64,000 bases of DNA from a virus (Duplodnaviria > Caudoviricetes), in IMG/VR virus record IMGVR_UViG_3300019370_000055, positions 1 through 64,000 of that record; one strand, given 5' to 3'. Positions 1 to 39,398 of the stretch are shown here, one piece after another. The position numbers and the translations under genes were made by a program. The stretch's first letter is position 1, and the number at the start of each line of letters is the position of its first letter. The notes under the pieces were generated by a model that saw only the letters and a program-made list of their open reading frames with translations, made no database searches and was not told where the DNA came from.

Positions 1-945
1 AACCTTTCCAGTAGGCTCTAAGCGAACACGCATTTTAAGAAATTTAAAACTGTGATTTTTAAATGGAGTTATTTTGCACTTCTTTTCATTTAGTTCAATT
101 CCCATTTCGTTAGAGAGTTCAACCAAAGTATCATGTAATCCTTTTAAAAACTCCAAAGAATCACTTATTACATATCCATCGTCCATATATCTCGCATATC
201 CATGAACTCCAAGTTTGTCTTTGATGTAATGATCAATCGGGCTGGCATAATCTAAAGCAATATTCTGTGATACTTGACTACCTAATCCAACGCCACGAGG
301 ATTGTCCGGGTCATGTTCCACGCCACCCAATTCTAAGAAATCATCAATTAATTGACAACCAATTTCCTGTAATTTGGGATCAAGAATATGTTTCTTTAAA
401 CGTTCTTTCGCTTTGTCATGTGGTATCGAAGCGAAATATCCATGAAAATCAAATTGATAAATTCCACCTTCCAGACCATATAAACGATAATGATGATGCA
501 AGAACTCAACAAGCCTTTTTAACGTCATGTCCATGCCCTTATCAGGCAAACTTGCACTATTATCATAAATGAAACTTCTGGAATAGGCTTCTGTCATGAG
601 TTCATCACAATAACATTTTTGAACACTACGATCCTGAATAACCAAAGAATTAATATCTCGTTCTTTTCCGTGTTCAATAGTTTTGAAATGTTTGAACCCA
701 CCAGATTCATACTTGCCGTTGAGAACTCGATCTTGCAAAGATTCAGTCTGCGTCAAAAGCACTGACTTGAAATTGATAGTAGAGGTTTTCCAGTTCACTC
801 CTTCGCAGCAGTTTTCACCAGCGTCCCACATATTATCAAAGTCAAACACATCCTCAAATGCCTTGCCGCAGACTGGTCTTGCTTTTTCTTCTCGTTCTCT
901 TTTACGTCTTTCGTATCTTTTCTGTTTTCTTTCCTCACTTGTCAT
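1..945 (-). CDS. DGR reverse transcriptase (3' end runs off the window)
   Basis: Not in the ORF track; translated by hand from ATG at 945: MTSEERKQKRYERRKRE...GKERDINSLVIQDRSVQK...FIYDNSASLPDKG...QFDFHGYFASIPH...GVGLGSQVSQ...YARYMDDGY (YMDD at 178-189). The G-x-G-L-G-S-Q-x-S-Q motif is typical of DGR RTs, and the gene lies downstream of TR and avd. Confidence 0.95.
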   Translation of the reverse strand, partial: MTSEERKQKRYERRKREREEKARPVCGKAFEDVFDFDNMWDAGENCCEGVNWKTSTINFKSVLLTQTESLQDRVLNGKYESGGFKHFKTIEHGKERDINSLVIQDRSVQKCYCDELMTEAYSRSFIYDNSASLPDKGMDMTLKRLVEFLHHHYRLYGLEGGIYQFDFHGYFASIPHDKAKERLKKHILDPKLQEIGCQLIDDFLELGGVEHDPDNPRGVGLGSQVSQNIALDYASPIDHYIKDKLGVHGYARYMDDGYVISDSLEFLKGLHDTLVELSNEMGIELNEKKCKITPFKNHSFKFLKMRVRLEPTGKV

Positions 946-1389
946 ATTGCCAAAGAACAAATCCTTTCCGTATAGCCTTATCATTCACTGGCGAATACGT
1001 CTACGCATCACAACCGTATCCGTTGGCAGTTTCCGATGCTGATTTACTAAGCTACGTAACTATGCACCTATGAAATTTAAGGGAGCAACGTGCCACGGAT
1101 CATCAGCCGAAGCCAATTACCGCAAGAAGGAAATGGGATGCTACCTCCTTCCGACACACCGCTCAAATCAGCAAAATGTCAATAAACCATGCAAGCAGCG
1201 TCCAGATGCAAGTATCGAAAAAGTGTTTTAGGATGCCATCAGGCAGAGCCACGGCATACATCCTCCTTCTGAAATAACGGATATTGTTTTCACCAGTAAA
1301 GGCCAGTATTATTTCAAGCCATTAAGGGCTACTAAGTCTAATCCAAGTTTGTGTACTAAATTTGATGCACCACAAACAGCTTCAAGAAT

Positions 1390-1506
1390 CCGGGGCGACC
1401 CCATTGGAATTGCCAGAGTTGTTGTTGTTCGGAGAACCGTCAGTGTTGACATTGCAGAAATTGTTCGTGTTGCCAGCATAGACAGAACGCAGCCACCAAT
1501 TCGCAG
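1390..1506 (-). repeat. DGR template repeat (TR)
   Basis: 117-bp ungapped match to 2412-2528 with 15 mismatches, all at TR adenines on the minus strand. TR has 28 A, with 12 AAY codons in the target frame (ANWWLRSVYAGNTNNFCNVNTDGSPNNNNSGNSNGVAP). Confidence 0.97.
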
Positions 1507-1539
1507 GGGGTTTTATCAGGATGTAACCGTTGTCGGCAA

Positions 1540-2184
1540 TTATTCTTTTGTAGAATCCTCTATGTCAAAAATATCTTCTGGTAAAACTACCTCACTTTCA
1601 TTGGCAATCTCATTTGTTTCATCTTTCTTCTTTGGCTTGGGATTACCGTCACGCTTGATGTATTCCCAAAGTTCCTGTTTAAGATAATCTAAGAACTCGC
1701 AGAAGAATTTGAAATTAATGATCTTACTCCAAGATTTCTTGCTCTGATACTTTTTATAACGTTTCTTATCAGATTCAATGATTCCTTTTACCAGAGCCGC
1801 TTCGTAATTCAAAAGCCTTGCCCATTCTTTAAAGATTCCAGAAGTTTTCTTTTTGTCCCCAAGAAAATTATTTCCTTTTAGCACCAACGAAAATGTCACA
1901 GTAAGCAAACCACTTAATGCAAAAATTGCGGATCGTGCTTTAGCGAAATATTCTTCTCGAAGATTAAATTCTGTTTCCATCATATTGTTATGAATATAGA
2001 TGGAGTTAGCCCGTAATACATCCTCATGAATTTCCAACGCAAGCCGGGTAATATCGTTGGTCAGACAAAACCTGTAAGATTTTGGGAACTTCTTAACTTG
2101 TTCCAGTGTATATGTAGCTAATTGTTGCGCCACTCGAATGAATTCAGCTTTTGATTCATTGCGCTTAGAAGCGTAGACAGACAT
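1540..2184 (-). CDS. avd: DGR accessory variability determinant (Avd-like four-helix bundle) with C-terminal extension
   Basis: Lies between target gene and TR. Basic helical protein with 'KKFPKSYRFCLTNDI...RANSI' Avd-like signature; AGGAGG RBS. Confidence 0.85.
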   Translation of the reverse strand: MSVYASKRNESKAEFIRVAQQLATYTLEQVKKFPKSYRFCLTNDITRLALEIHEDVLRANSIYIHNNMMETEFNLREEYFAKARSAIFALSGLLTVTFSLVLKGNNFLGDKKKTSGIFKEWARLLNYEAALVKGIIESDKKRYKKYQSKKSWSKIINFKFFCEFLDYLKQELWEYIKRDGNPKPKKKDETNEIANESEVVLPEDIFDIEDSTKE

Positions 2185-2266
2185 TGATGATCCTCCTATT
2201 TATCATATTTAGATTATTTGCCCCACATCTAAGCAGATATGAGATTGTTTTCTCAACCCGCCCTTT

Positions 2267-2295
2267 ATGTTAGCAGATTAGTTTCTCATTGTCAA
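2267..2295 (-). promoter_or_regulatory. sigmaA-type promoter for avd-TR-RT
   Basis: Minus strand TTGACA-17 bp-TAACAT about 80 bp upstream of avd. Confidence 0.6.
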
Positions 2296-2339
2296 GGGCA
2301 AATTGAGAAAATTTTCTAAGATTAAGGGTAAACCGTTCA

Positions 2340-2384
2340 TCCCCCTTATCTGTCCCGGCTTGCGCCTTAGACAAGATAGGGGGA
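2340..2384 (-). other. Hairpin/cruciform just 3' of VR (DGR target-recognition element and/or terminator)
   Basis: Minus strand TCCCCCTATCTTGTC...GGC-GCAA-GCC...GACAGATAAGGGGGA begins 13 nt after the target stop codon and is absent after TR. Confidence 0.65.
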
Positions 2385-2397
2385 TTCACTGATTAGC

Positions 2398-4419
2398 TTA
2401 AACACAGAAGGCCGGGGCGACCCCAAAGGAAATGCCAGAGGCGGTGCTGTTCGGAGAACCGCCAGTGTTGACACGGCAGAAACAGTTCGTGTAGCCAGCA
2501 CAGACAGAACGCAGCCACCAATCCGCAGTTGATGTTGTAGCATTATGGCGGTAGAACACTTTGCTGTTCCCGGCTTTATAAAAATCATACTGTAATTGTG
2601 AATTCTGCTCATACTGACTGGCGTATGACCTTGCCCCTTGTACTTCAAACTCAGCAAGCAAGAATAAATAATCATCTGTCTTAGTTATTGCACTTGCTGC
2701 GTTGGAACTTCCACCAGTATTATCAGAATACTTTGAACAAGACTTCATGACCGCACGAAGATCACTCGGCAATGCCGCCATAAATGTCTTTGCCGCAGGA
2801 CTTGTTGGATTCTGACCCAACAAATTATTTCTCATAGAACAGTCTTTCCAACCACCAGCATTTGTACTATTACCAGATGTTGAACCATTCATGGTAAACG
2901 TACCATTCCAGTTAGCGTACTGAGCATCAACAAAGCAAATATTATTGCCCTTATTACTGACCTTGCCAATCTGGAAGTGAATGCGGTTTGCACCTTCCTT
3001 TGCGCTATTATGGTTAAAGCCCAAAATAAACGCCCAAACATTCATGTTAATAGCAGTTGAACTAACAGTACCATTTACTAAAATCTGTTTGCCATCACCA
3101 ACATTCCAATAAGTCGAAGCCACACCAGCATCAGACACTTGCCTAATCTGCGCCCAAGTATACTCATTAAGTGCCTTACCAGAAGCAGGAATAAACTCCG
3201 CATTCACAGTAAAGGTCTTATTTGCTGGAGCGTTATGATTAGTGCCAGCCGCCACCGCAACAGTAATTGTCGCTGTACCAGACTTCTTATTAACATGACT
3301 AACAGTGATCACATTACCACTAATGGAAACCGTAGCAACGTTGGTATTGCTGGATGTGGCAGTAATCTTACCGTCACCAGCACGTGTCGCAGTCACAGTA
3401 TCAGTCAATTTATCAGTGTTCAATGTCACAGAAGTCTTATTCAGACTCAAACTACCAGCCGCCTTACCGATTGTCCAAGACACTTCCTTGGCAGTAGTAG
3501 AACCATCACTCCAACAGTAATCAGGTTTAGGAGTAAACGTAGCCTTATATGTACCAGCGGCAGTTTGTTTAGTAACACCGCCAATGGTCAACTGTGCTGT
3601 ATTGTAATTGCTGAATGTAGGTGTAAGTTCTGCCCCTGTATAAGTCAACGTACCACTCTGAGCAGGAACAGCGGTCAATTTGGTCTTATTGGGAATTGCA
3701 GTAATTCTACCAACCGTACTTGTGTTTACTGCACCTTCAGTAGAAATTGGGAACAGGGCAAAATAATAAGTAGTCCCATTTGTGAGGCCAGTTACCTCCA
3801 GTGGACTACTTGCGTGTGCATTTCGAGTTGTACTATTCAAGGCCAGTGTGCCATCTTCAGGAGATGTAGGATAACCACCAGTCTTATAAACCACCTTTGT
3901 ACTTGCCCATGTAGAGAGCGTCACACCATCTTGAACCTTTGTTGCGGCAGGATCATTCCATTTAAGCTGAACACGACCATTTAACTGAGCCGCAACAGTC
4001 AGATTAGAAATATCACCCGTAGGCACAGGATTGGGTGTAATCGTTACCTCATTTGCAGGATCATCTGCATATGTATTTGTAGTAGAATATGGGAAGAACT
4101 TGTAATAATAAGTCACACCATCACTCAAACCGCTATCACAAAAATATTGTGTCTTATATGCGTCACGAGTTTTATTGTCAAGAACAACTGTACCATCACG
4201 GCGACTTGCTGGCATAGAACCCGCCTTACGAACCAGTAACGTACCAGCCCATGCAGCAAGAGTAGCATCACCAACAACCGTATCAATAGGATCAGTCCAT
4301 TTCAAATATGCTTTGCCTGAAGCAGCCAGTGTAGCAAGACCAGTCACAGGAGCCAGAGGAATCCCGCCACCGCCGCCAGAACCGCCACTACCAGTTGGGA
4401 AAATAGAAACAATAGGCAT
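2398..4419 (-). CDS. DGR target: tail fibre/receptor-binding protein (two FN3-like repeats, Ig-like domains, C-terminal C-type-lectin-like variable domain)
   Basis: Two related repeats (LKW.DP...G.TYY..FP.ST), T/A/V-rich Ig-like segment, and C-terminal WWLRS...GVAPAFCV carrying the VR. Last gene of the tail module. Confidence 0.9.
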   Translation of the reverse strand: MPIVSIFPTGSGGSGGGGGIPLAPVTGLATLAASGKAYLKWTDPIDTVVGDATLAAWAGTLLVRKAGSMPASRRDGTVVLDNKTRDAYKTQYFCDSGLSDGVTYYYKFFPYSTTNTYADDPANEVTITPNPVPTGDISNLTVAAQLNGRVQLKWNDPAATKVQDGVTLSTWASTKVVYKTGGYPTSPEDGTLALNSTTRNAHASSPLEVTGLTNGTTYYFALFPISTEGAVNTSTVGRITAIPNKTKLTAVPAQSGTLTYTGAELTPTFSNYNTAQLTIGGVTKQTAAGTYKATFTPKPDYCWSDGSTTAKEVSWTIGKAAGSLSLNKTSVTLNTDKLTDTVTATRAGDGKITATSSNTNVATVSISGNVITVSHVNKKSGTATITVAVAAGTNHNAPANKTFTVNAEFIPASGKALNEYTWAQIRQVSDAGVASTYWNVGDGKQILVNGTVSSTAINMNVWAFILGFNHNSAKEGANRIHFQIGKVSNKGNNICFVDAQYANWNGTFTMNGSTSGNSTNAGGWKDCSMRNNLLGQNPTSPAAKTFMAALPSDLRAVMKSCSKYSDNTGGSSNAASAITKTDDYLFLLAEFEVQGARSYASQYEQNSQLQYDFYKAGNSKVFYRHNATTSTADWWLRSVCAGYTNCFCRVNTGGSPNSTASGISFGVAPAFCV
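2412..2528 (-). repeat. DGR variable repeat (VR)
   Basis: Encodes the C-terminal ADWWLRSVCAGYTNCFCRVNTGGSPNSTASGISFGVAP of the target. Differs from TR only at TR adenines and ends in GC-rich GGGGTCGCCCCGG, after which TR and VR diverge (IMH/IMH*). Confidence 0.97.
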
Positions 4420-14395: not shown

Positions 14396-17300
14396 TTACG
14401 GTTTCAATGTCGTGCCAAGGCTCTTATGTCCCCGCTTTATAAAGCTGTCAGTGATTTGCTGGATCGTACTTTGACTAATTTTCCTTGTCAACTGCTTAAT
14501 CTCCGCATCATCCATCTTTTGTGCTGGATAGATTTGTACTGGAACATCAATATTAAAAGTGTCACCGCCCTGTCTTACAACCGCTTGTGCCTGTTTCGCA
14601 TCCTGCTTAATTTGTTCTTGCATTTTAAGTTCTGCTAAATCAGAGCCAGAAAACGAATTGAAAAGTTTCCCGTACTTACCTAACAGCGTTTCCGCAAAAT
14701 CAAGTGTACGATATAAAGGTTCTTGCTGTTTTTCGGTAATAACAGCCTCACCCTTCTCCAGCTTTGCGAAGATTTCTTTCTGCTTTAGAGTAGGCTCATC
14801 CCCAACAATGCCGCCAGTATGATATACACTATAAGGATAAGTCTCATACAGCTTCGGCCCACCAACTCGATCCAGATACCAAACACCATCATCACCACGT
14901 ACAGCGGTACGACCAATCAGCGAAGTCAACTGCTTACCTAAATCAAGGTTTGCTTTATTCAGTCTGGCTTTGCCAGCAGCATCCGCACTATGATGTGCCG
15001 CCGAGTTTTCTTTCATCTGGTGAACAATATTTTTCACTTGCCCCAAAGTCTGGCTTCCACTGGTGTCATAGTTTCCAGTAGCACCAATCGCAGAGCCGCC
15101 TTGAGGTTTCCCGCCAGAAGAACCGCCGACTACATTAGAACCAGAACTTGACTCATATGATGCAATCTGCCGTTGTGTCTCCAGAATAGCATTTAAATAA
15201 CTGCCATACTGTTGAACCGCTGCGCTTGCTGCATCCCATGCTTTGGTGATTTCATCGTTAGTAACAGAGCCATATTCATAGTTCCAGTTAATCAAATCCT
15301 GATATAACGTGTTCCAATGATTATTAATCCGATCAATGGCAAGCTGATACAGCTTTTCTTCAGAAGAAATTGTATTCTCCAGAATGTCAATTTCTTTCTG
15401 CTTTTCCTTTTCATAAGAATCAGCCATATCATCAAGCATATCGCTGGTAGCGTCATAGGCATGATCTGATTGATAATCCGCAAGGTCATTAATCTTTTCA
15501 GAAAGTTCCTCTTGCAGTTTGGCCTTTTTCACCGCTGCTTCACGACTATCATCCAAGTCAAGCGCATGAATTTGTTTCTGTAAATCCGCAATTTCTTTCT
15601 GCTTGTCTGAAACAGTCTTTGTATAATTATCTTTTTCCTTTTCCAGTTCAAGCGACTTCTTTTGTAAATCTACGATTTCCTTATATGCGTCAACCTGATC
15701 CTCCAGAGCCTTAACCTGATTCTTGACTTCCTGTTTAATCATTTCTTCAACGTATTTAAGCAAGTCCTCAAGTGCGCTGGCCTGATCCTCGACAGCCTTC
15801 TTTGCCGCCCCATCAACCTTACCAATACTGGTAATAGCAACGTCCGACAGAGAACGCAAAGCATTAATGCGGTTCAAAGCGTTATTGTACTGTTGCTGAT
15901 CCAGCCCTAACAACTGCAACTGCGCATATACCAAATCCCAAGTAGAACTTGAGGCCGCATTTGTTGCTGTAGTAAGATTCATAAGTGCTACAACATCATT
16001 ATCAGCCAATGCCTGTCTAAGTTGCTGAACATAGTTTAATGCTGTTTCAATCGCCATCTGCTGTGTACGAGCAGCGATTACCTTTTGAATGTTTTCCTCA
16101 TTGATAACCAACATCCCATTTTCATCTTGCAAATAGGCCAGATTCTCAACACCAAGTTTAGCAATCTCTTGGAAAGTAGAGACTGTTATATAACCACTTT
16201 CAGAAAATTCCTTTGCCGCATCTTTAAGAGTATCATACAGGCCAGTAATTTGATCCAGAGCATCATGAGCATTATCAACTACCTGTTGCCAAGCATCGGC
16301 AGATACAGTCTTGATTTCATCATAGTAATCCCACCACAAGTCCTCCAGCTTTGTAATTTCATCGCTGGTATCTGCATATCCGAGAGAACGATAATATTCC
16401 GCTTCTTGACGAACCGCCTCTTGCATAGCCCGATAATGGTCAACAATCTCGCCTGTGTTTCGAGTAATCTCGCCACGGTCATTTGATTCAATCGCATGAT
16501 TAAGCAGATTTTCATTCTTTGTAATTGCATTTTCATGTTCTTTAGCCGTATTTTCATAAATGGCAATATTAGCTTCTTGAATCTTGTATGCTAACTCCAC
16601 CCAAGAATCAGAATTTTCCTGATTAGCTTTATTAAGTTCCCCTAATGTATTAATCAGACTTTCCGTATCTTTCCGAAGTGCATTTGTAGCTTCTTGCAAA
16701 GAGCCATATTTGCCTTTACTATCTGCGGTTAATTCATTTAAATGCTCCAGATTCTTAACAAAGAAATTATTCTTGTCAGGATCATACTCAACATCAAATC
16801 CAAGCTGGCGAAGTGATTCAGTACCATCTTTAATAGTTTGATCACGTAATTCATTCAAATCATGAAGCGCATCTTGTTCCTCTTTGTAAACACCAATTAA
16901 TTCTTGCTGAAGTTCAATTTGTGTTCTTAGATCATTGGTATTTAAAAGTTGAGTTTCTAAGTCGCTTTTCTTAATTTGAACACGGTTAAGCCGCTCGATT
17001 GCTTCACGGTAATCATCAATAGCAGCAATATATTCTTCAATCTCTTTTGTTGAGGAACCAGAGCCGCTTTTAAAATTCTTGAGTGGTGCATTTTTTAATG
17101 CTTGCAAAGCCGCAATCTGACCATCAATTTGAGAAATGGCCTTCTGATAAGAAGATATATCAAGTTCAACCTGAGATACAAAATCTTCTAAGGACGCACC
17201 CTTAAAATCAAAATCAAAGTCAAACCCATTAAATTCGCCAGAAGTAATATTTGTCTTAATTTTGTCACGTAATTTTCCACCAAAAGAGCCAGCAAATTTT

Positions 17301-19918
17301 GTTACAGAACCTTTAACTACACCATTTGCCATACCCTCAATCGCTTTGGCACTTTCATGGGCTTGTTTTGCCACAGAAGCAATATCGGTCTTGGCTCTTT
17401 CCATATTCTCATAGATGCCCATAGCGGCATTATAAGCTGCTGCATTAAAATTACCATCTACATCAGTACAAACATCTCTTGCAACACGATCAAATTCCTC
17501 TGCATTCAAGGCCATTGATTGTGCCGCTAACTTATACGCCTCGGCTTCATCAATACCATTATCAATTAATGCCTGAACCATTTCATTAGATGCTTTAATA
17601 CGATACTCTGCAACCTCTTTTGCTACCTGACCTTCACCTTCACCAACATTTTTTGCCAGTTCAAGTTGTGCCTGTGCCGCTTGCATCTTTGCTTCAAGAA
17701 CAGTCTTATCAGCTTGAAGTTCTGCGATTTGTGTATCAATTTGAGTATCTAATTCTTTCTTTTTGCTCGTTAAGAAACTATTTACAACTTCTTTATTTAA
17801 GGCAATTTGCCCATTAGATGACACTTGGGCATTATTAAGAATCTCTGGATATACTTTTGCAAATTCTAACGCCTTGTCCAAGGACATAGTAAAACCGTTT
17901 GCTACTTGAGCCTGTAAATCTGCAAGTGTCTGGAATGAATCAGAAACAGAATCAATCGTATTTGCTATATTAATGAAATTATTAAGAGCGGAGGCATAAG
18001 CATTTGTGTCACCAGTAATGCTCCCATATAAACTGCTATAAAGTGTTAATTTCGCTTGATTTGCAGCAATGGCCTCTGTGTTTGCATTTATCTCATCTGT
18101 TGTATCTTTGATTTTTTTATCCCAAGCCGCTATTGATGAAGTATCACCAATACTCATACTCTTATTGGTACGATACATTTCTAAACTTTGAGCCAGAACT
18201 TCATTTCTTTCTTCTAAAGAACTAATCTCTTTTTGAATTTCATCTATATCGCCCAACATTTTAGTATTGGCATTTTCTTTCCACGCCTCAGTATTGAGTT
18301 TAATTACACCATTTTCTTCATACAGATAATCAAGGTAATTAGCTTCGGCCTCTGCCAAATCAGCAATCGTATCAGGTGATAACCCACCCCCACCAGCCAT
18401 TTCTTCTTGCGCCGTTGCCAGAACATCATAAGCAGACTGCAAATCAGACAACGTTTCTGTAAGATCAGAAAGTTGAGCAGAATAGCGGCCTGTGGATTCA
18501 GCATTACTATCGGTTTCGACTTTTAATGCGTTATAATGACTTGCCAATTCATATGCTGTATAACCAGAATCCTCCATCCACTTTGCAAGTTCTTGATACT
18601 GACCAGCTAATTCATTAATTCTCTCTGCTGTTAAACCACCCTCAGACCCCTCGCTATTTAATACGTCCTTCAAATCATTAGGAAGTTTTTCAAGTAAAGA
18701 TGTAAAATGTTCTGCTGGGTTGATACAAGCATCAATCGCATCAGCAAGGTTATTCCAATTCTTAACATCATCGCCATCACCAACAAAATTATCAATATAA
18801 TCGTTTTGCAAAGTTTGACTAAGTGAAAGCAACTCGCTTCGGATTGAAGCCATTTCTGCAATTTGACTATCGGTTGCATTTTGACCTAAACCTTCTAATT
18901 CCTTATATCTTGCAATCAGTTGGTCAACATAATCATCAAATCCAAGTTGTTCTGGATATTGTAATTTATTATTGCCCTCTAACATCAAATTCTGATATTC
19001 AGAATAAAGATTTATTAGTCTCTCTTGTTCCTCTTCACTGAACTTATCCCAATTTTCAGACCAACCATTATGCCATTCTTCTAATGCTTTAAAACCTTCT
19101 GCATTATTCGCTCGAATAGCATCTGCATCAAACAGCATATACATTCCGGCATTAGAATTATAATATTCGTTATTATAATCTTTAACCAAACTCTTATTAG
19201 ATTTATCTGCTGCCTCTTGAGCAGCTTCATTCTTTAACCGAATTTGACGTTCTAATTGTGCATTGGTTTCTAACAGACGATCCAGTTCCTCTTGTTCAAC
19301 GAGAGTTATTCTACCTTCATCAGATAATTTTTGAAGTTCAGCAATACGATCTTTTGTTGTCTTTAATTCGGAGTTTAGTCCATCAAGTTCACTTGCTAAA
19401 TCATCATATTCTTGCTTCAGTTCTTCAGTTGTCTTGTGAAATTTATTGAACAGATTAATTGCCATTGGAACTATTGCGATTAAGAGAGAAATCGCAGTTA
19501 CAGCAATCATAAAAGGATTTGCTGCCATAACAGCAGTTAATCCACTCATAGCCGCAGACAGACCGCCTGTAGCAGCGGTAGCAGCGGTTTCAGCGGCAGT
19601 AAAAGTTGTAGCTGCTACCGCATCTTTTATTTGCGCCTTTTCAAATCCAGCAGCACTCATTGCAGCCATCGTTGCTTGTTCAGAAAATTGCAATGTTGCC
19701 ATTGTTGCGGCTGTTTGTGTAGCCGTAAAACCAGATGCCTTTAAGGACGAAGCAACTTGTTCTGCACTAAGACCACTTAAACTAACAGTTGCGGCTATTT
19801 GTGCCTCATTTAATCCTTGTAACGATAAGTTCAAAGAATCAAATGTTGCTTTTGATATACTTCCACTAACAGCAATTTCTTTTAATATAGCAGAAACATT
19901 ACCTATGGATTTAAGTGA
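14396..19918 (-). CDS. Tape measure protein, exon 2 (annotated alone as a 1841-aa ORF from 19921)
   Basis: Long helical/coiled-coil ORF with hydrophobic 'AANPFMIAVTAISLLIAIV' and C-terminal 'YHTGGIVG'. No Shine-Dalgarno before its ATG. Confidence 0.85.
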   Translation of the reverse strand, partial: SLKSIGNVSAILKEIAVSGSISKATFDSLNLSLQGLNEAQIAATVSLSGLSAEQVASSLKASGFTATQTAATMATLQFSEQATMAAMSAAGFEKAQIKDAVAATTFTAAETAATAATGGLSAAMSGLTAVMAANPFMIAVTAISLLIAIVPMAINLFNKFHKTTEELKQEYDDLASELDGLNSELKTTKDRIAELQKLSDEGRITLVEQEELDRLLETNAQLERQIRLKNEAAQEAADKSNKSLVKDYNNEYYNSNAGMYMLFDADAIRANNAEGFKALEEWHNGWSENWDKFSEEEQERLINLYSEYQNLMLEGNNKLQYPEQLGFDDYVDQLIARYKELEGLGQNATDSQIAEMASIRSELLSLSQTLQNDYIDNFVGDGDDVKNWNNLADAIDACINPAEHFTSLLEKLPNDLKDVLNSEGSEGGLTAERINELAGQYQELAKWMEDSGYTAYELASHYNALKVETDSNAESTGRYSAQLSDLTETLSDLQSAYDVLATAQEEMAGGGGLSPDTIADLAEAEANYLDYLYEENGVIKLNTEAWKENANTKMLGDIDEIQKEISSLEERNEVLAQSLEMYRTNKSMSIGDTSSIAAWDKKIKDTTDEINANTEAIAANQAKLTLYSSLYGSITGDTNAYASALNNFINIANTIDSVSDSFQTLADLQAQVANGFTMSLDKALEFAKVYPEILNNAQVSSNGQIALNKEVVNSFLTSKKKELDTQIDTQIAELQADKTVLEAKMQAAQAQLELAKNVGEGEGQVAKEVAEYRIKASNEMVQALIDNGIDEAEAYKLAAQSMALNAEEFDRVARDVCTDVDGNFNAAAYNAAMGIYENMERAKTDIASVAKQAHESAKAIEGMANGVVKGSVTKFAGSFGGKLRDKIKTNITSGEFNGFDFDFDFKGASLEDFVSQVELDISSYQKAISQIDGQIAALQALKNAPLKNFKSGSGSSTKEIEEYIAAIDDYREAIERLNRVQIKKSDLETQLLNTNDLRTQIELQQELIGVYKEEQDALHDLNELRDQTIKDGTESLRQLGFDVEYDPDKNNFFVKNLEHLNELTADSKGKYGSLQEATNALRKDTESLINTLGELNKANQENSDSWVELAYKIQEANIAIYENTAKEHENAITKNENLLNHAIESNDRGEITRNTGEIVDHYRAMQEAVRQEAEYYRSLGYADTSDEITKLEDLWWDYYDEIKTVSADAWQQVVDNAHDALDQITGLYDTLKDAAKEFSESGYITVSTFQEIAKLGVENLAYLQDENGMLVINEENIQKVIAARTQQMAIETALNYVQQLRQALADNDVVALMNLTTATNAASSSTWDLVYAQLQLLGLDQQQYNNALNRINALRSLSDVAITSIGKVDGAAKKAVEDQASALEDLLKYVEEMIKQEVKNQVKALEDQVDAYKEIVDLQKKSLELEKEKDNYTKTVSDKQKEIADLQKQIHALDLDDSREAAVKKAKLQEELSEKINDLADYQSDHAYDATSDMLDDMADSYEKEKQKEIDILENTISSEEKLYQLAIDRINNHWNTLYQDLINWNYEYGSVTNDEITKAWDAASAAVQQYGSYLNAILETQRQIASYESSSGSNVVGGSSGGKPQGGSAIGATGNYDTSGSQTLGQVKNIVHQMKENSAAHHSADAAGKARLNKANLDLGKQLTSLIGRTAVRGDDGVWYLDRVGGPKLYETYPYSVYHTGGIVGDEPTLKQKEIFAKLEKGEAVITEKQQEPLYRTLDFAETLLGKYGKLFNSFSGSDLAELKMQEQIKQDAKQAQAVVRQGGDTFNIDVPVQIYPAQKMDDAEIKQLTRKISQSTIQQITDSFIKRGHKSLGTTLKP

Positions 19919-19936
19919 CATTTCAATAAAATACTC

Positions 19937-19964
19937 TTGCTTCTTAATGGGAATATGTTATAAT
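19937..19964 (+). promoter_or_regulatory. sigmaA promoter of the intron cargo gene
   Basis: TTGCTT-16 bp-TATAAT with extended -10 (TGnTATAAT). Confidence 0.7.
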
Positions 19965-20000
19965 ATGGTTGAATTAAATTAATTGTTGGAGGATGATATA

Positions 20001-20528
20001 ATGTCGCTCATTAAATGTCCAGAATGCAACAAAGAAATTAGCGATAAATCAGAAGTTTGCATACATTGTGGATTTCCAATTAAAGCCCAATCAGAATTGT
20101 TAAAACCGCATACGTGTAATATAAATGGCAAAATTATTGATTTTTCAAACGTTTATAATGCAATTCCAATATCAAGAGATGACTATTTAAAGTTAGATAT
20201 TTATGATCAATTTAAATATAGTAAGCAAGTTGTACAAAATATCCAATCTACGATTTCTATAAATAGCCTTGCTGCTAATTATCTTGCTGAACAAATTCTT
20301 GAAACAGGAGAAATACCTAAAGAATTTGATGCAATTAAATATGAAGCACAGGACAATCAAAATAAAATTGATAGGCAAAATATCATGCAAATTCATTGTC
20401 CTCGTTGTGGTTCCACTTCTATCACCACAGGAGCCAGAGGTGTAAACTGGACGCTGGGCTTGATTGGAGCCAGCAAAACAGTCAACCGTTGTGCCAAATG
20501 TGGACATACATGGACTCCACATAAGTAA
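20001..20528 (+). CDS. Double zinc-ribbon protein, antisense cargo inside the intron
   Basis: GGAGG at 19988-19992, then ATG 20001. CPECNK...CIHCG at the N-terminus and CPRCGS...CAKCG at the C-terminus. No GIY-YIG, LAGLIDADG or clear HNH motif. Confidence 0.85.
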   Translation: MSLIKCPECNKEISDKSEVCIHCGFPIKAQSELLKPHTCNINGKIIDFSNVYNAIPISRDDYLKLDIYDQFKYSKQVVQNIQSTISINSLAANYLAEQILETGEIPKEFDAIKYEAQDNQNKIDRQNIMQIHCPRCGSTSITTGARGVNWTLGLIGASKTVNRCAKCGHTWTPHK

Positions 20529-20963
20529 TTGAATTTCTTACGCCCCTCTCAGGACTTGGTAAAGAATAGAACTAAATTCATAAAGGTTCTATCCACTATA
20601 CATTATAAGTCATAAACACTTATGGCGGTTTATGGCTCAAAGAATCGGTAGTCTCTGAGGATTCAGGCCACTAAGGTCTGTGTCCTACTGATTGCCTCTT
20701 GTCAACAGTCCGTAGCACAGGATCACTCCTGCTTTTATCTCAGCATAGACCATCCAGATAATTTTTTCTGCTTTCGCAACATTCACGCCTATCATTACTG
20801 ATTACGTTGTAGTTTATCTGGCCCTTGAAGGCTTTCCAGTATTTACTTCTTTGATTATTTTAGAACTCCCATCACTATGCTTTGTTAGTTACGCCATATT
20901 GTAACTTTCTCAGCATAATTAGACTCACTATCATCCATAGGTAGTGTGTGATCTTATCACTCA

Positions 20964-23900
20964 ATCCAAGTTCTTTACAAATGCAGCAATTCCAACTCCA
21001 GCAAGTGCCGTTCCAAACGGCCCAATTAATGAAGTCACGAAATCAATCGCACTGGCTAAACCAGTAAGCATATCAATAATTACACCAATTTCTTCTCGCT
21101 TAAACAAATTCTGAAAAATTCCTGTGCCAGTTTCTTTCAGCGCATTCAATTTAAATTCAAGCGATTTGGTGATAATCTCCATTTCCGCATCTGCATTACC
21201 AGCACTCTCAGCCATGTTATTCATTGCCTTTTCCGCAGCTTCAAAGTTTTGCAGAATAGCTTGACCAACGCTGGCTCTATTCTTGCCGAACAGCTTCTCC
21301 ATCAACTGTTGCTGTTGCTTTTCGCTAAGATCATCATAAACCTCAGAAATATCTTTTAAGTATTGATAAACTGATTTATAATGTTCTTGTGTTTCATCCG
21401 TAAACAAAGAAACACCTTGAGAATTTTCAGTTGCCTTCGTCAAATCATAAACTTCACCAGTAATATTTGCAAGTTCTTCTGAAAGTTCTCCTGTTTCCTC
21501 ATCATACCCACGCACACGCATAGAAATACTACGTAGAGCGTTACCAACTTTTGAATCATCTTGGGTAATTTCTTGTGCCGCAGTAAACAGCGCAACGTTT
21601 TCTTCCAATGTGGAGTTCATCGCCGCCATAGCTGACGCTGAATTTTGTAAGCCATTAATAATCTCTGCATTTGACGTTGCTGCCGTATTGCCAACGATAT
21701 TAATTTTCGACATTACGCCATCAAGCACTTCTTCAGCCTCAATACCATAGGCTTTCATGACACTAACCAATCCAGTTGTTGCCGTTCCAATATCTACGCC
21801 TGGGGAGATTGCTGAGAATTGAGCCGCCAGTTTCGCCATCATTGTGGAACTGGTTTTGTCGCTATAGCCCAAACGTGACCAATCCGCCGCTGACTGAATA
21901 ATATCCTTTGTTGTTACACCAAGTTTCTTAGCGGCATCATTAGCTTCTTCATAAAAAGAAACCAAATCTGATCCAGACATTGTAGTTGTCTTTTGCAAGT
22001 CAACCAATGCTGTATCAAGTTCAACAACTGTATTTACGCCTTCTTTGATTACGGAAATAATTTTCCGTATAACCATTACTCCGCTTGTTAGACCAAGCAG
22101 TTGTAAAGTAGTATTTTTAAGAGAAGTTGCAAATTGACTTGTCACAAGGCCAGCAACTTTAGCTTCAGACTTTATCTTAGCCAATTCTGCTCTTGCTTTA
22201 GCAAGCATTATTGGATCACTGTTATTGGCTAAAAGGGCTTGTATTTCACGTAACTTATCACCATATACTTGAGCGGCCTTTGTATTCTGATTCATCCATG
22301 ATTCAATAGAATTTGAAAGAGTGGATGATTTCGTCATTGTCAACTGTGCCGCAGTATCATCTTTAACAGCTTTTTCGTGTTCTCTTGTAGCCTGTTCCGC
22401 AGCTTTTGATTGCCTTGCCATTATGTCAAGATCATTAGATACTCTTTTGATTATTGCATCATATTGGTCATAGGCATTAATAACTTGTGCATTATTTGTA
22501 CTTGTTGCAATAGTTTCTGCCAAAGAACGCAAATGTACAAAATTGCTTTGTATAGATTGAGCAGAACTATCAGAGACATTTTTCAAGGCCAAAAACTTAG
22601 TTTCTAAAGCACTAATACTATTTTCTAATGAATTAGACTTTGCTTGATCACGATAGTTGTTTGCTGTCTGCATAATAGCATCAGCAACTTTTCCTTCTGC
22701 TATTGCTAATTTGCCGGCGTTTTCAGCAGTTTGAATAACATAATTATTAAATTCTTTAGAGTAGTTAATTAATTCAGGATGGACACTTACAGTTCTTTCA
22801 ATTTCAGATGTAATTCTACGCCTATATTCATACTGTAATTGAAGTTGATCATTAAGTGCTTTATATTCATTTGAATCCTTACCTTTTCCAACCATAGATT
22901 TCTCAAGGCCAGAAATTTTACCCTGAATGGTTTGTAAGGCTTGATACTTTCCGTTTAACCCTCTAAGTTGTTCTTGGAAAACTTTTACGTCTGCTTTCAA
23001 TAAATCAAAACCATTTAAATAAGCTGTCAATGAATTATTATCAAAAGCATTACTTAATTTCCCAGTTAATTCAGTAATCCGATTTTTAAATTCTGCTGTT
23101 AAGACACCAGCATTATCGAGATGACTTTCAAAAAGGGCTAATTTTGATAGTTCTTCTTCTTTGATAGGCGCAATATCCTTAGTTCTAAGCTGAGTGGCAA
23201 CATATTCCGCATTTTGATATTCTTTTGCCAAACGCTTCAAATCTGCAATCTGAGAACTAATATTCGACCTTTGCTTTTGTGATAATGCACCATCGGAACT
23301 TTCCAGTTGTTCAATTTGAGTTTTTATTGATTGATATTGTTTTTCTAATTCTCTTAAATGACTTTCATCATTAACACTTTTAGGAGAATTTTGATTAGTA
23401 TAAGCGGATGCAATATCTTTCAACAAAGACTTCTGTTGAGACAAATACTTAACTCGTGCATCATTTTCGGCCTGTGCCTTTTTTGCTAAAGTATCTTGTT
23501 CTTTTTGCTGCGCTTTTAAATTGTCTGTGATTGCAGTTTGTGTCCGTACAACTTCTCCCGTTTCTACATTGAATTGTTTTGTTATAGAGACAAGTTTACC
23601 TTGTTCCGTTGAACCTTGAATCATCAAGTTCAAAAGTTTCTGTGTAGATTCAGTTCCATCATCTTCGGCTTTTTTCACTTCAACCCATTTATGCTGAACC
23701 TTTTCCAAAGCAATATTCATAGAGGTGAATTCTTTCATTAATTCTTTCGCACCAGAATCACTAATCTTCAAGCCAGACAGTTCACTTTTGATACGTTCAA
23801 TGTTACTTTGTTCAAGGCTAATATTGACTTTAATATCTTTCACAGTCAAAGACTGATTAAGTTGCTTGGCAATGTTATTAATCTGCGAAGTGATTTGCTC

Positions 23901-24044
23901 ACTCCGAATATTATCAATCTTGGCACTTAAAGTAATTTCCTTTTTGCCAATATTAGTCAACACTCGGTTTAAGTCTTGATCCATCTGTTCTGTAGTTTTT
24001 GCTATATCTAAACCTAATACAATCTGACCATCCACATCAGGCAT
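20964..24044 (-). CDS. Tape measure protein, exon 1 (TP901-type core)
   Basis: 'VELDTALVDLQK', 'AADWSRLGY', 'VGNALRSISMR', 'LFGKNRA' TMP core. Ends ...AAFVKNLD at the predicted 5' splice site. Confidence 0.9.
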
Positions 24045-37733: not shown

Positions 37734-37809
37734 TGGCTCCTGCGACTGGACTTGAACCAGCGACTCCTTGATTAACAGTCAAGTGTTCTACCAACTGAAC
37801 TACACAGGA
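37734..37809 (-). tRNA. tRNA-Asn(GTT)
   Basis: TCCTGTG..AGTTGGTA..CTTGA-CTGTTAA-TCAAG..GGTTCAAGTCC..CGCAGGA-GCCA cloverleaf. Confidence 0.92.
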
Positions 37810-37845
37810 ATATAAAAGGCCAAGGGATAAAAACCCCTTGGCTTC

Positions 37846-37919
37846 TGGTAGAAGGTGTCGGACTCGAACCGCTATACCACATCCCAAATGTGGTGTGTTA
37901 CCATTACACTACACCCTCT
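37846..37919 (-). tRNA. tRNA-Pro(TGG), atypical T stem
   Basis: Anticodon arm CCACA-TTTGGGA-TGTGG, GTTCGAGT loop, CCA end. T stem pairs only 3 bp. Confidence 0.7.
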
Positions 37920-37926
37920 ATATAAT

Positions 37927-38020
37927 CCACAATAGGCCGAACGACACTTCGGCATCTCCATTTCGCCAGTACGCACAATCCGGCATTGGTGATAGCTGCC
38001 TGTTCTATCCTCTATTGTGG
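37927..38020 (-). ncRNA. Candidate structured RNA (four-way junction) between tRNAs
   Basis: Closing stem CCACAATAG/CTATTGTGG enclosing three hairpins; strand assumed from the operon. Confidence 0.5.
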
Positions 38021-38137
38021 CATTGCTGTCTAAAGCAACTACTAAATAATGTGCCTTATTCAGATGTGTTGTAACTCCAGCAACAAAGTTTGTTTATAGC
38101 AAAGAAAGGAGACTCGCTGCCGCTTACCCAAGGCGGC

Positions 38138-38222
38138 TGGTACTGCTGACGGGGATCGAACCCGTATGCCTCAAGGCGAGGGATTTTAAGTCCCTTGTGT
38201 CTGCCAATTCCACCACAGCAGC
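38138..38222 (-). tRNA. tRNA-Leu(TAA)
   Basis: GCTGCTG..GGAATTGGCAGAC..AGGGA-CTTAAAA-TCCCT, long variable arm, CCA end. Confidence 0.93.
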
Positions 38223-38229
38223 ATATTTA

Positions 38230-38460
38230 TTATTCATCCCAAGGAATACAATCATATAAATCGACTGGAGAACTTGCAGTTTTCATTTTAATAAATCCCT
38301 TATCAACTATCTTCCACAATGTAAATTTTTGTTTTTCTGTATTTTGACTTATTTGATACTTTTGACCAGACTTTCTTGCACATAATACTCCTGCTCCATT
38401 TTCAGATGTAGGAATATTCTTTACTACTTTTTCGCTGGTTTCTTCAGATTTCTTTCTCAT
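38230..38460 (-). CDS. Small hypothetical protein
   Basis: ORF track; ATG at 38460 overlaps the upstream stop. Confidence 0.6.
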   Translation of the reverse strand: MRKKSEETSEKVVKNIPTSENGAGVLCARKSGQKYQISQNTEKQKFTLWKIVDKGFIKMKTASSPVDLYDCIPWDE

Positions 38461-39098
38461 AAATAACTCCACCTATAATGATATGCTGTTTTGCGGTTTC
38501 CTTTACACACAGAACTTATATGTGCAGCAGCACCAGATATTAATTTCACATCATCTGTTTGAAGAACATATCTTGCGGCATCTGTTTCACTCGAAAATGA
38601 TTTTATAAATTCTCCATTCAAAGAAAACATATTGATATTTTTGCCACAGACTTTATTTATAACTTGATTTCCTGAAGCAAGTTTAACATTCCTTATATTC
38701 AATATATTTTTTACTGTAGCTATATCTATACCGACAATTTTTGCTGTTTCTTTTTGATTATGAGTTAATTCATATATGCGAACCACTAAATCATAATCGA
38801 CATACTGTGTACCATCTCCACCAACCGTTGCATTATATCCATTTCTATATGTATCATAATAATTTATCCAATATCTTTCTCTTTCAGAAAGAATTAAATC
38901 ACTACAAGTTTCAACTTCACTTATCTCAAAATTTTCAATACCATATTTTCTTATTGCACGATATAATGGTCTGTTTTGGTATCTGTCTTTCTGGCAATCA
39001 TTACAATGCTCCTTCCATCGCTCTTGAATTGTAAACATTGTCTTACCAATATAACACTTACCATTAATTTTATTTACTATTTTATAAATAAATGGCAT
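38457..39098 (-). CDS. Free-standing GIY-YIG homing endonuclease with NUMOD1-like C-terminus
   Basis: FIYKI...CYIGKT...RWKEH...ERYWI...GYN; 'IKSFSSETDAAR'; lies among tRNA genes. Confidence 0.88.
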   Translation of the reverse strand: MPFIYKIVNKINGKCYIGKTMFTIQERWKEHCNDCQKDRYQNRPLYRAIRKYGIENFEISEVETCSDLILSERERYWINYYDTYRNGYNATVGGDGTQYVDYDLVVRIYELTHNQKETAKIVGIDIATVKNILNIRNVKLASGNQVINKVCGKNINMFSLNGEFIKSFSSETDAARYVLQTDDVKLISGAAAHISSVCKGNRKTAYHYRWSYL

Positions 39099-39117
39099 TT
39101 ATATCACCTCTATTTTA

Positions 39118-39193
39118 TGGTAGGGGCAGTAGGAATCGAACCTACGTTTCTGGCGTGAAAGGCCAGCGTCTTAACCACTTGACTAACGCCCCG
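39118..39193 (-). tRNA. tRNA-Glu(TTC)
   Basis: CTGGC-CTTTCAC-GCCAG anticodon arm, GTAGG-TTCGATT-CCTAC, CCA end; acceptor stem slightly irregular. Confidence 0.82.
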
Positions 39194-39263
39194 TATTATT
39201 GAATACACCGTTATATCTTTTAAACTTTTGCCAGTTGGCTTACTGTTCCTCCTGACATTATTT

Positions 39264-39292
39264 ATTATAATTGATTATACCGTTATTGTCAA
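39264..39292 (-). promoter_or_regulatory. Consensus sigmaA promoter with operator-like motif in its spacer
   Basis: TTGACA-ataacggtataatcaat-TATAAT (17-bp spacer). Confidence 0.85.
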
Positions 39293-39323
39293 GAGGTTTT
39301 TTGAAATTTCTTTAAAAAATTTT

Positions 39324-39398
39324 TGGTGGGAGAAAAAGGACTCGAACCCTTTCCCTTTGGGCTTCAACCAAATGCTCTACCTGTTAAGCTATTCTCCC
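39324..39398 (-). tRNA. tRNA-Phe(GAA)
   Basis: GGGAGAA/TTCTCCC acceptor, TTTGG-TTGAAGC-CCAAA anticodon arm, CCA end. Confidence 0.88.

Follow-up and report, generated by a model that had tools for sequence, protein, structure and literature searches.

Our analysis concerns a window of 64,000 nucleotides (nt) taken from a 124-kb virus record (IMG/VR IMGVR_UViG_3300019370_000055, a mouse-gut phage, estimated to be 97% complete), and in particular two adjacent open reading frames (ORFs) on the minus strand of this window. We conclude that these ORFs are very probably the exons of a single gene for a tape-measure protein (TMP) of 2867 amino acids (aa), split by a 1045-nt group I intron (19919..20963, minus strand) that is spliced out of the late mRNA. 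ORF 1 (24044..20961, minus strand) encodes 1027 aa and matches Pfam PF10145 (PhageMin_Tail, E 8.6e-23), ORF 2 (19921..14396, minus strand) encodes 1841 aa, and a gap of 1039 nt separates the two. The initial annotation, made from the letters of this DNA, had seen the tape measure as these two ORFs and had placed the splice sites at the nucleotides that we arrive at here. Exon 1 (20964..24044, minus strand, 1027 codons) ends in the residues ...FVKNLD; its 3’ end reads ...AAC UUG GAU, with the final U at 20964, and is followed directly by an in-frame UGA, which is the first codon of the intron. Exon 2 (14396..19918, minus strand, 1840 codons) starts with SLKSIGNV.... The apparent ATG of ORF 2 (19921-19919) is intron sequence, its G (19919) being the last intron base (the omega-G), and no Shine-Dalgarno sequence is present ahead of it (the upstream sequence is AGAGUAUUUUAUUGAA), in agreement with the earlier remark that ORF 2 has no ribosome-binding site of its own.

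Homologues of ORF 2 that are not split are single proteins of 2136-2997 aa with PF10145, and in BLASTP comparisons these unsplit TMPs align to ORF 1 and then to ORF 2, in the same order. Exon 1 is collinear with the unsplit TMPs P0041-P0049; in P0048, for example, residues 238-1084 correspond to ORF 1 residues 144-1024, and residues 1170-2904 to ORF 2 residues 50-1736. In more than 40 clusters of close relatives (at least 66% identity; well over 100 contigs) the split always falls at the ORF 2 methionine, and no fused TMP was found among relatives of this identity in a collection of 5.8 billion proteins. Close relatives of exon 2 were found neither among INPHARED phages (tblastn with its N-terminus) nor in a related-locus search of IMG/VR.

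The spliced form is seen in RNA libraries. We aligned the contigs of four RNA-labelled public runs to window positions 19300-21600, and in two of these runs (X16 and X17, RNA libraries from two independent studies) contigs join exon 1 to exon 2 with 1045 nt skipped. The joint runs from 19917 to 20963, and as one base fits on either side it equals the loss of 19919..20963; the junction AACTTGGAT-TCACTTAAA, which had been predicted to appear in RNA, is therefore present at the predicted nucleotides in contigs of both studies. The joined contig of X16 (study P8, a metatranscriptome) covers 618 nt on the exon 2 side and 30 nt on the exon 1 side; that of X17 (study P9, a transcriptome) covers 325 nt and 24 nt on these sides and shows no differences from the window. 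In X17, moreover, no contig departs from the window sequence, the intron interior (19972-20936) is represented by a contig of its own, and none spans either exon-intron boundary, a pattern that fits spliced mRNA plus excised intron. Taken with the in-frame join and the unsplit homologues, the RNA junction supports the proposal that splicing gives one 2867-aa TMP (...FVKNLD/SLKSIGNV..., where the slash marks the exon junction).

Diverged copies of the intron at the same TMP site were found in IMG/VR and GTDB contigs with a 17-mer from the R element of the core (the 5’ strand of P7, see below). Together with three further copies (L004-L006) they gave an alignment of 11 distinct sequences in four lineages, made with MAFFT and not fitted to any structure. 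P1 (20919..20969, minus strand) is formed by exon 1 UUGGAU (20969-20964) and guide GUCUAA (20924-20919), with a small hairpin, P1a, in its loop. The U.G wobble at the cleavage site is kept in all 11 sequences, and three of the six P1 pairs change on both sides (UUGGAU/GUCUAA, UUGGGU/GCCUAA, CUAAGU/GCUUAG). The terminal intron base is G in each of the 10 sequences with a defined 3’ end, and the junctions are all in frame. Next to the P1 guide lies the P10 guide, UACCUAUGGAU-GAU-AGUGA (20925..20943, minus strand), whose pairing partner is the 19-nt start of exon 2, UCACU-UAA-AUCCAUAGGUA (19900..19918, minus strand). A hand check of the 25-nt guide as a whole (20943-20919) confirmed pairing at 22 of 25 positions with UUGGAU joined to UCACUUAAAUCCAUAGGUA, the U.G falling exactly on the junction.

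The P10 of the window consists of 5 base pairs (bp), a 3-nt internal loop and 11 bp, and in all lineages it has 5 plus 9-12 bp and spans 19-22 nt. The duplex between the window guide and exon 2 has a predicted energy of -25.1 kcal/mol against a shuffle mean of -6.6, and none of 1000 shuffles reached it; over the lineages, cognate guide/exon 2 duplexes range from -13.7 to -25.1 kcal/mol; no other duplex in the same row of the lineage matrix is as strong, and neither is any of 1000 shuffles. Across the four lineages both exon edges, where exon 1 ends and exon 2 starts, change in concert with the P1 and P10 guides. The window lineage combines UUGGAU/GUCUAA (exon 1 end/P1 guide) with the exon 2 and P10 guide strands given above and the protein junction KNLD/SLKSIGNV. 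Group B has CUAAGU/GCUUAG, exon 2 CAACU-ACAAA-AUUUAGGAAA, P10 guide UUUCCUAAAU-AA-AGUUG and KNLS/QLQNLGNV; group C has UAGAU/GUCUA, exon 2 UCAUU-GUCG-AAUUUAGGAAG, P10 guide CUUUUCCUAAAUU-UGAU-AGUGA and KNLD/SLSNLGSN; and group D has GAU/GUC, exon 2 UCACU-AAA-AAAAUAUAGGAA, P10 guide UUCCUAUAUUUU-GA-AGUGA and KNFD/SLKNIGNV. The exon strand of P10 thus co-varies with the guide in groups B, C and D.

P10 is normally a short pairing (PMC3984707), and the initial annotation, which had read the guide by the P1, P10 and omega-G rules of group I splicing, had remarked on its unusual length. Since the long P10 is kept through compensatory changes, we take it to be real, and the covariation of guide and exons that had been named as a check is found in all four lineages. 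In the more distant TMP introns (L025, L023, L035, L039 and L041; see below) no clear candidate for a long P10 was seen. The length of P10 likely has an architectural cause, namely the tethering of a remote exon 2: with a cargo of some 600 nt separating P9 from the 3’ splice site, exon 2 would need a base-paired tether.

The ribozyme core occupies 20529..20963 (minus strand) and comprises P1, P2, P2.1, P3, P4, P5 with a P5a-c extension (GAAA loop), P6, P7, P8 and P9. We tested a structure model of 106 pairs in 20 helices, P1a included, against the alignment of 11 sequences: 92.8% of cells are paired, against 33-38% (about 36%) in controls with slid partners, and changes on both sides are seen in 44 pairs, where the slid controls have 1-8. 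None of 500 shuffles attained the observed value. Compensatory changes are present in P1, P2, P2.1, P3, P4, P5, P5a, P6 and P8. The P4-P6 and P3-P8-P7 domains, with the P3/P7 pseudoknot, follow the canonical group I order. All elements that the initial annotation had listed (P3, P4 as UACUGG/UCAGUA, a P5 extension with a GAAA loop, P6, R, P8 and a GNRA P9) stand in the order it gave, with one refinement: the 3’ strand of P4 is the second UCAGUA (intron positions 273-278), and the P5 extension of ~130 nt lies between the two UCAGUA copies. The first AAUCAGUA was considered for this strand and was ruled out by homology with Goe20, Twort and phiEF17H. P9 (GUCCU-GAGA-GGGGC, 20542..20555, minus strand) is a hairpin with a GNRA loop, which is GAGA, GAAA or GGGA among relatives, and its stem co-varies. 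When the core was folded as a single sequence, by a method that cannot represent the pseudoknot, the z-score was only -2.1. Splicing of the intron would be autocatalytic and guanosine-dependent.

Several observations weigh against a spliced, autocatalytic intron, some of them in the RNA data and others in the core itself. The RNA evidence consists of contigs, not reads, and contigs do not separate RNA from contaminating DNA. The stretches of exon 1 in the joined contigs, 30 nt in X16 and 24 nt in X17, are under the 31-nt bridging rule; they are close to the maximum reach of a unitig beyond a branch point if the assembly words used by Logan are 31 nt. The joined contig of X16 differs from the window at 7 positions (a variant strain), and more than one strain is present in that library. 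The other two RNA-labelled runs, X1 and X2, from a third study, contain the unspliced form only, in contigs of 28-44 kb; they were set aside as a test of splicing and may be DNA or the source of the window itself. At the DNA level the joined junction had no matches in IMG/VR and none in JGI contigs, and the positive control, an unspliced boundary, likewise had none in IMG/VR and one in JGI (L007). As the two collections barely contain this phage, the lack of joined DNA in them is a weak test for an intron-less form.

Could the joined sequence come from an intron-less variant, present as DNA or mRNA, while the phage of the window makes its TMP as two proteins? The strain mixture and the 7 differences in X16 would allow this, as would the inability of contigs to tell RNA from contaminating DNA. 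We nevertheless regard it as very unlikely, because the joined contig of X17 is identical to the window in a library that lacks unspliced boundary-spanning contigs, because none of the more than 40 clusters of close relatives has a fused 2867-aa protein, and because joined DNA is absent from the IMG/VR and JGI contigs, few as the copies of this phage in them are. Moreover, ORF 2 would have to be translated without a ribosome-binding site, and it would make no sense for P1, P10 and the core to be under strong purifying selection in a relic that does not splice.

With regard to the core, the covariance-model check suggested in the initial annotation came out negative: Rfam RF00028 gave no match even at E <= 1 in a scan of the region, and there was no group I match at the gathering score in the whole window. 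The same search also fails on the related introns L001 (Silviavirus) and L002 (Lactococcus phage AM1), and because these control introns are missed as well, the negative weighs little. A more specific difficulty lies in P7. Its 5’ strand, the R element G-A-GACUA (20649..20655, minus strand), is invariant in 11 of 11 sequences, and the G at 20653 is presumably the guanosine-binding G. Read with a contiguous S element (GUAUAGU-GG, -GA or -AA), P7 sets a purine opposite this G, so that the window has G.G instead of G-C. The G-C would be rescued only if the R element paired with UAGU...CC, that is, if the 3’ strand (20558..20598, minus strand) were split into UAGU (20598-20595), a 35-nt hairpin (20594-20560) and CC (20559-20558).

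This hairpin-interrupted reading gives G-C, a bulged A and G-C. The CCA after the hairpin is invariant among the 11 sequences, four pairs of the hairpin stem change on both sides, and no other conserved partner for P7 was found within the intron. The five distant TMP introns (L025, L023, L039, L041 and L035) have an identical R element and an unbroken GUAUAGUCCA, which again gives G-C, bulged A, G-C. From the sequences, the simplest reading would be that a hairpin has been inserted into the 3’ strand of P7; since the P7 pairs themselves never vary, the split is something that we infer. Two other candidates for the 3’ strand are not conserved, UAGUC inside the antisense ORF and GG[A]UAG (the latter not conserved in L004 or L006). 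A third candidate, UGAAU/AUUCA, fits less well than a pairing between the hairpin loop and the core tail once L016 and L032 are included. This candidate pseudoknot (20530..20580, minus strand) would tentatively pair the loop UGAAUUU (20580-20574) with the tail AAAUUCA (20536-20530); it forms 7 bp in all sequences that reach the tail, and one position occurs as G-C, G.U and A-U.

The cargo between the core and the 3’ splice site contains a gene antisense to the TMP (20001..20528, plus strand), which encodes a protein of 175 aa with zinc ribbons at its N and C termini. Its ATG at 20001 is preceded by GGAGG eight bases ahead, and the TTG at 19983 is an unlikely start. Over 19800-21100, predicted promoters and terminators are no more numerous than in shuffled sequence, and none stands out as a promoter of the antisense gene. 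In Pfam the protein has zinc ribbons only, with no nuclease of the LAGLIDADG, GIY-YIG, HNH, His-Cys box, PD-(D/E)xK or EDxHD type; its sole PHROG match is phrog_2546, of unknown function, and its neighbours in the protein atlas are viral zinc-ribbon clusters. An AlphaFold model (mean predicted confidence, pLDDT, 79.5) resembles generic zinc ribbons only, and a structure search returned nothing at E <= 0.001. No ORF of the intron in any copy has a transposase domain (IS200/IS605 or IS607). The cargo protein is thus no recognisable homing endonuclease or transposase. The gene is present in all intron lineages and in L025. Conservation in the protein is confined to the N-terminal ribbon (CxxC...CxxC) and to some 45 aa at the C terminus (CPxCGS...RG...G-IG--K--N-C--CG); its middle is variable, and replaced outright in L004, L016 and L025.

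The insert varies in size from 985 to 1493 nt among relatives. In L004 and L005, whose ORF 2 is 71-76% identical to that of the window, the intron is 1406-1407 nt long, has an extra 70-aa sense ORF, and carries a zinc-ribbon gene cut to 137 aa; their cargo region (intron positions 436-915) has undergone turnover, with the core and guide retained. Such variable content would be expected if the insert were a mobile zinc-ribbon cassette placed between two independent tail genes, with the complementarity of guide and exons serving translational coupling or mRNA stability. We consider this extremely improbable, given the exact junction in RNA contigs, the full set of group I hallmarks with their covariation, and the fact that homologous TMPs are single polypeptides.

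The apparently interrupted P7 and the constant presence of the zinc-ribbon gene bear on a further alternative, in which the intron is of group I but does not splice unaided and relies on a helper protein, be it a host factor or the product of the antisense zinc-ribbon gene. In favour of this, P7 has a mismatch on the direct reading and an interruption on the other, 600 nt separate the core from the 3’ splice site, and the zinc-ribbon gene accompanies the intron in every lineage, yet has no nuclease motif. At the same time, the invariant CC past the hairpin restores both G-C pairs of P7, an RNA-only solution is already at hand in the long P10 and the loop-tail pairing, and the middle of the zinc-ribbon protein is not conserved, having been replaced in L004, L016 and L025. 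On balance a helper-dependent intron seems unlikely to us.

Returning to autocatalytic splicing, we propose the following course. The first 435 nt of the intron would form the catalytic core, in which P1 (UUGGAU/GUCUAA, with its U.G wobble) would define the 5’ splice site and the split P7 would retain the G-C pair that binds guanosine. The cargo of ~600 nt with the antisense zinc-ribbon gene would separate this core from the 3’ splice site. The guide that forms P1 would also pair with the 19 nt at the start of exon 2 to make the two-part P10, and this long helix would bring exon 2 and the terminal G of the intron, though remote in sequence, to the active site, so that the exons would be ligated in frame as ...FVKNLD/SLKSIGNV.... 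With an in-frame UGA at the start of the intron and no ribosome-binding site for exon 2, the full-length tape measure, and hence the tail, should need splicing, and tail assembly in these phages should depend on it. For annotation, the adjacent tail ORFs are to be joined as one 2867-aa tape measure, and the same joining applies to the whole clade of gut phage genomes and to a prophage-like contig in an assembly of Flintibacter muris. The antisense zinc-ribbon gene appears as a conserved passenger of the intron.

Elsewhere in the window, Rfam finds an RT-2 RNA motif at 1036-1346 (minus strand, 46.1 bits, above the gathering score); this motif usually adjoins reverse-transcriptase genes. A cluster of five tRNAs lies at 37737-39398 (minus strand), with a skipping-rope RNA (RF02924, 55.3 bits) within it at 37928-38019.

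The contig from the assembly of the isolate Flintibacter muris DSM 110149 (NZ_CALPCP010000004.1, 1-3489; L046) ends inside an intron copy that is 93% identical to that of the window, and the TMP exon 1 ahead of it has 83% protein identity. A related prophage is suggested by this, or else a phage that was co-assembled, with Flintibacter (Oscillospiraceae) as a probable host. A metagenome contig (OFGG01027066.1, 611-1473; L007) follows the intron to about position 315 and then continues with a different 3’ part, which has a canonical GUAGUC S element and an unrelated exon; its P3 would be broken, and the contig is a chimera of the assembly or the product of recombination between two related introns. 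The five distant introns, with their uninterrupted P7, lie in other TMPs after the same hydrophobic ...G-GIA----- segment. Because even these distant copies follow the same segment, the sequences point to the intron as an old resident of the TMP site, which would have been inherited and would have co-evolved there rather than homed recently.

In blastn searches, intron positions 115-234 (J3/4, P4, P5 and P5a) are ~80% identical to elements in Twort-like, Lactococcus, Enterococcus, Listeria and Fusobacterium phages. These elements carry canonical P, Q, R and S sequences and occupy unannotated gaps in split essential genes, for example those for ribonucleotide reductase (phiEF17H), Pol III alpha (AM1) and rpoB (LPJP1); further related elements are found in Twort, Remus and Goe20. 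In Staphylococcus phage Remus (JX846612, 1438-2226; L010) two tandem group I cores lie in the gap after a 'capsid protein' fragment, where the record annotates predicted promoters and terminators only, and many public Twort-like records omit these introns. In Fusobacterium phage Fnu1 (1435-3118; L011) a homologous core follows a DUF1983 tail gene and is itself followed by a transposase gene, an IStron-like layout. The introns of Twort-like (Herelleviridae) and SPO1-like phages, AM1, phiEF17H and LPJP1 share the architecture of the window intron, its P, Q, R and S elements and a P3’ directly after P7. They differ in having R as CAACGACUA, a contiguous S (AUAGUCU) and a 3’ splice site just past P9, whereas the window intron has R as CAGAGACUA, a hairpin inside S and a 3’ tail of 600 nt.

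An intron in a TMP gene is not in itself new, since group I introns have been described at three sites in TMP genes of Bacillus cereus-group prophages (Tourasse & Kolsto 2008, PMC2504315); spliced introns are also known from tail and capsid genes of Cluster J mycobacteriophages (PMC3706429). As in the window, a tail gene is interrupted, P1 and P10 are fitted to the site, and the intron is inherited with the phage or prophage lineage. The window intron differs from both in its two-part P10 of 19-22 nt in place of a few bp (the Bacillus TMP introns being compared by description), in its antisense cargo between P9 and the 3’ splice site, which is not a recognisable homing endonuclease, and in its setting, gut phages with a tape measure of ~2900 aa that probably infect Oscillospiraceae. 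We found no published description of a two-part P10 of ~20 bp that co-evolves with the exon, of an interrupted P7 or of antisense cargo that is not a nuclease. A broader proposal, tentative and to be taken as a whole, is that the clade may form a distinct group I subclass in which the two-part P10 of ~20 bp replaces proximity in the choice of the 3’ splice site and so permits a cargo of several hundred nt, P7 tolerates a hairpin in its 3’ strand whose loop pairs with the core tail, and the antisense zinc-ribbon protein, in place of a classical homing endonuclease, is a new intron-associated factor with a role in mobility, retention or splicing.

Two further systems offer a comparison with the distant 3’ splice site. 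IStrons combine a group I ribozyme at the 5’ end with an insertion sequence (IS) element at the 3’ end (PMC4227781), and like the window intron they have the core at the 5’ end and long protein-coding cargo before a distant 3’ splice site. In place of a transposase, the window intron and its relatives have a zinc-ribbon protein of 137-175 aa on the opposite strand, and the element stays at one TMP site, where it co-evolves instead of transposing. The intron appears to be a natural ribozyme that chooses a 3’ splice site 600 nt away through a long guide co-evolved with the exon, and its guanosine-binding helix also seems to be interrupted. The long guide recalls those designed for engineered trans-splicing group I ribozymes, in which a long antisense stretch beside the P1 guide tethers a non-linked exon; the guide described here, on the other hand, is natural, acts in cis and is maintained by compensatory evolution.

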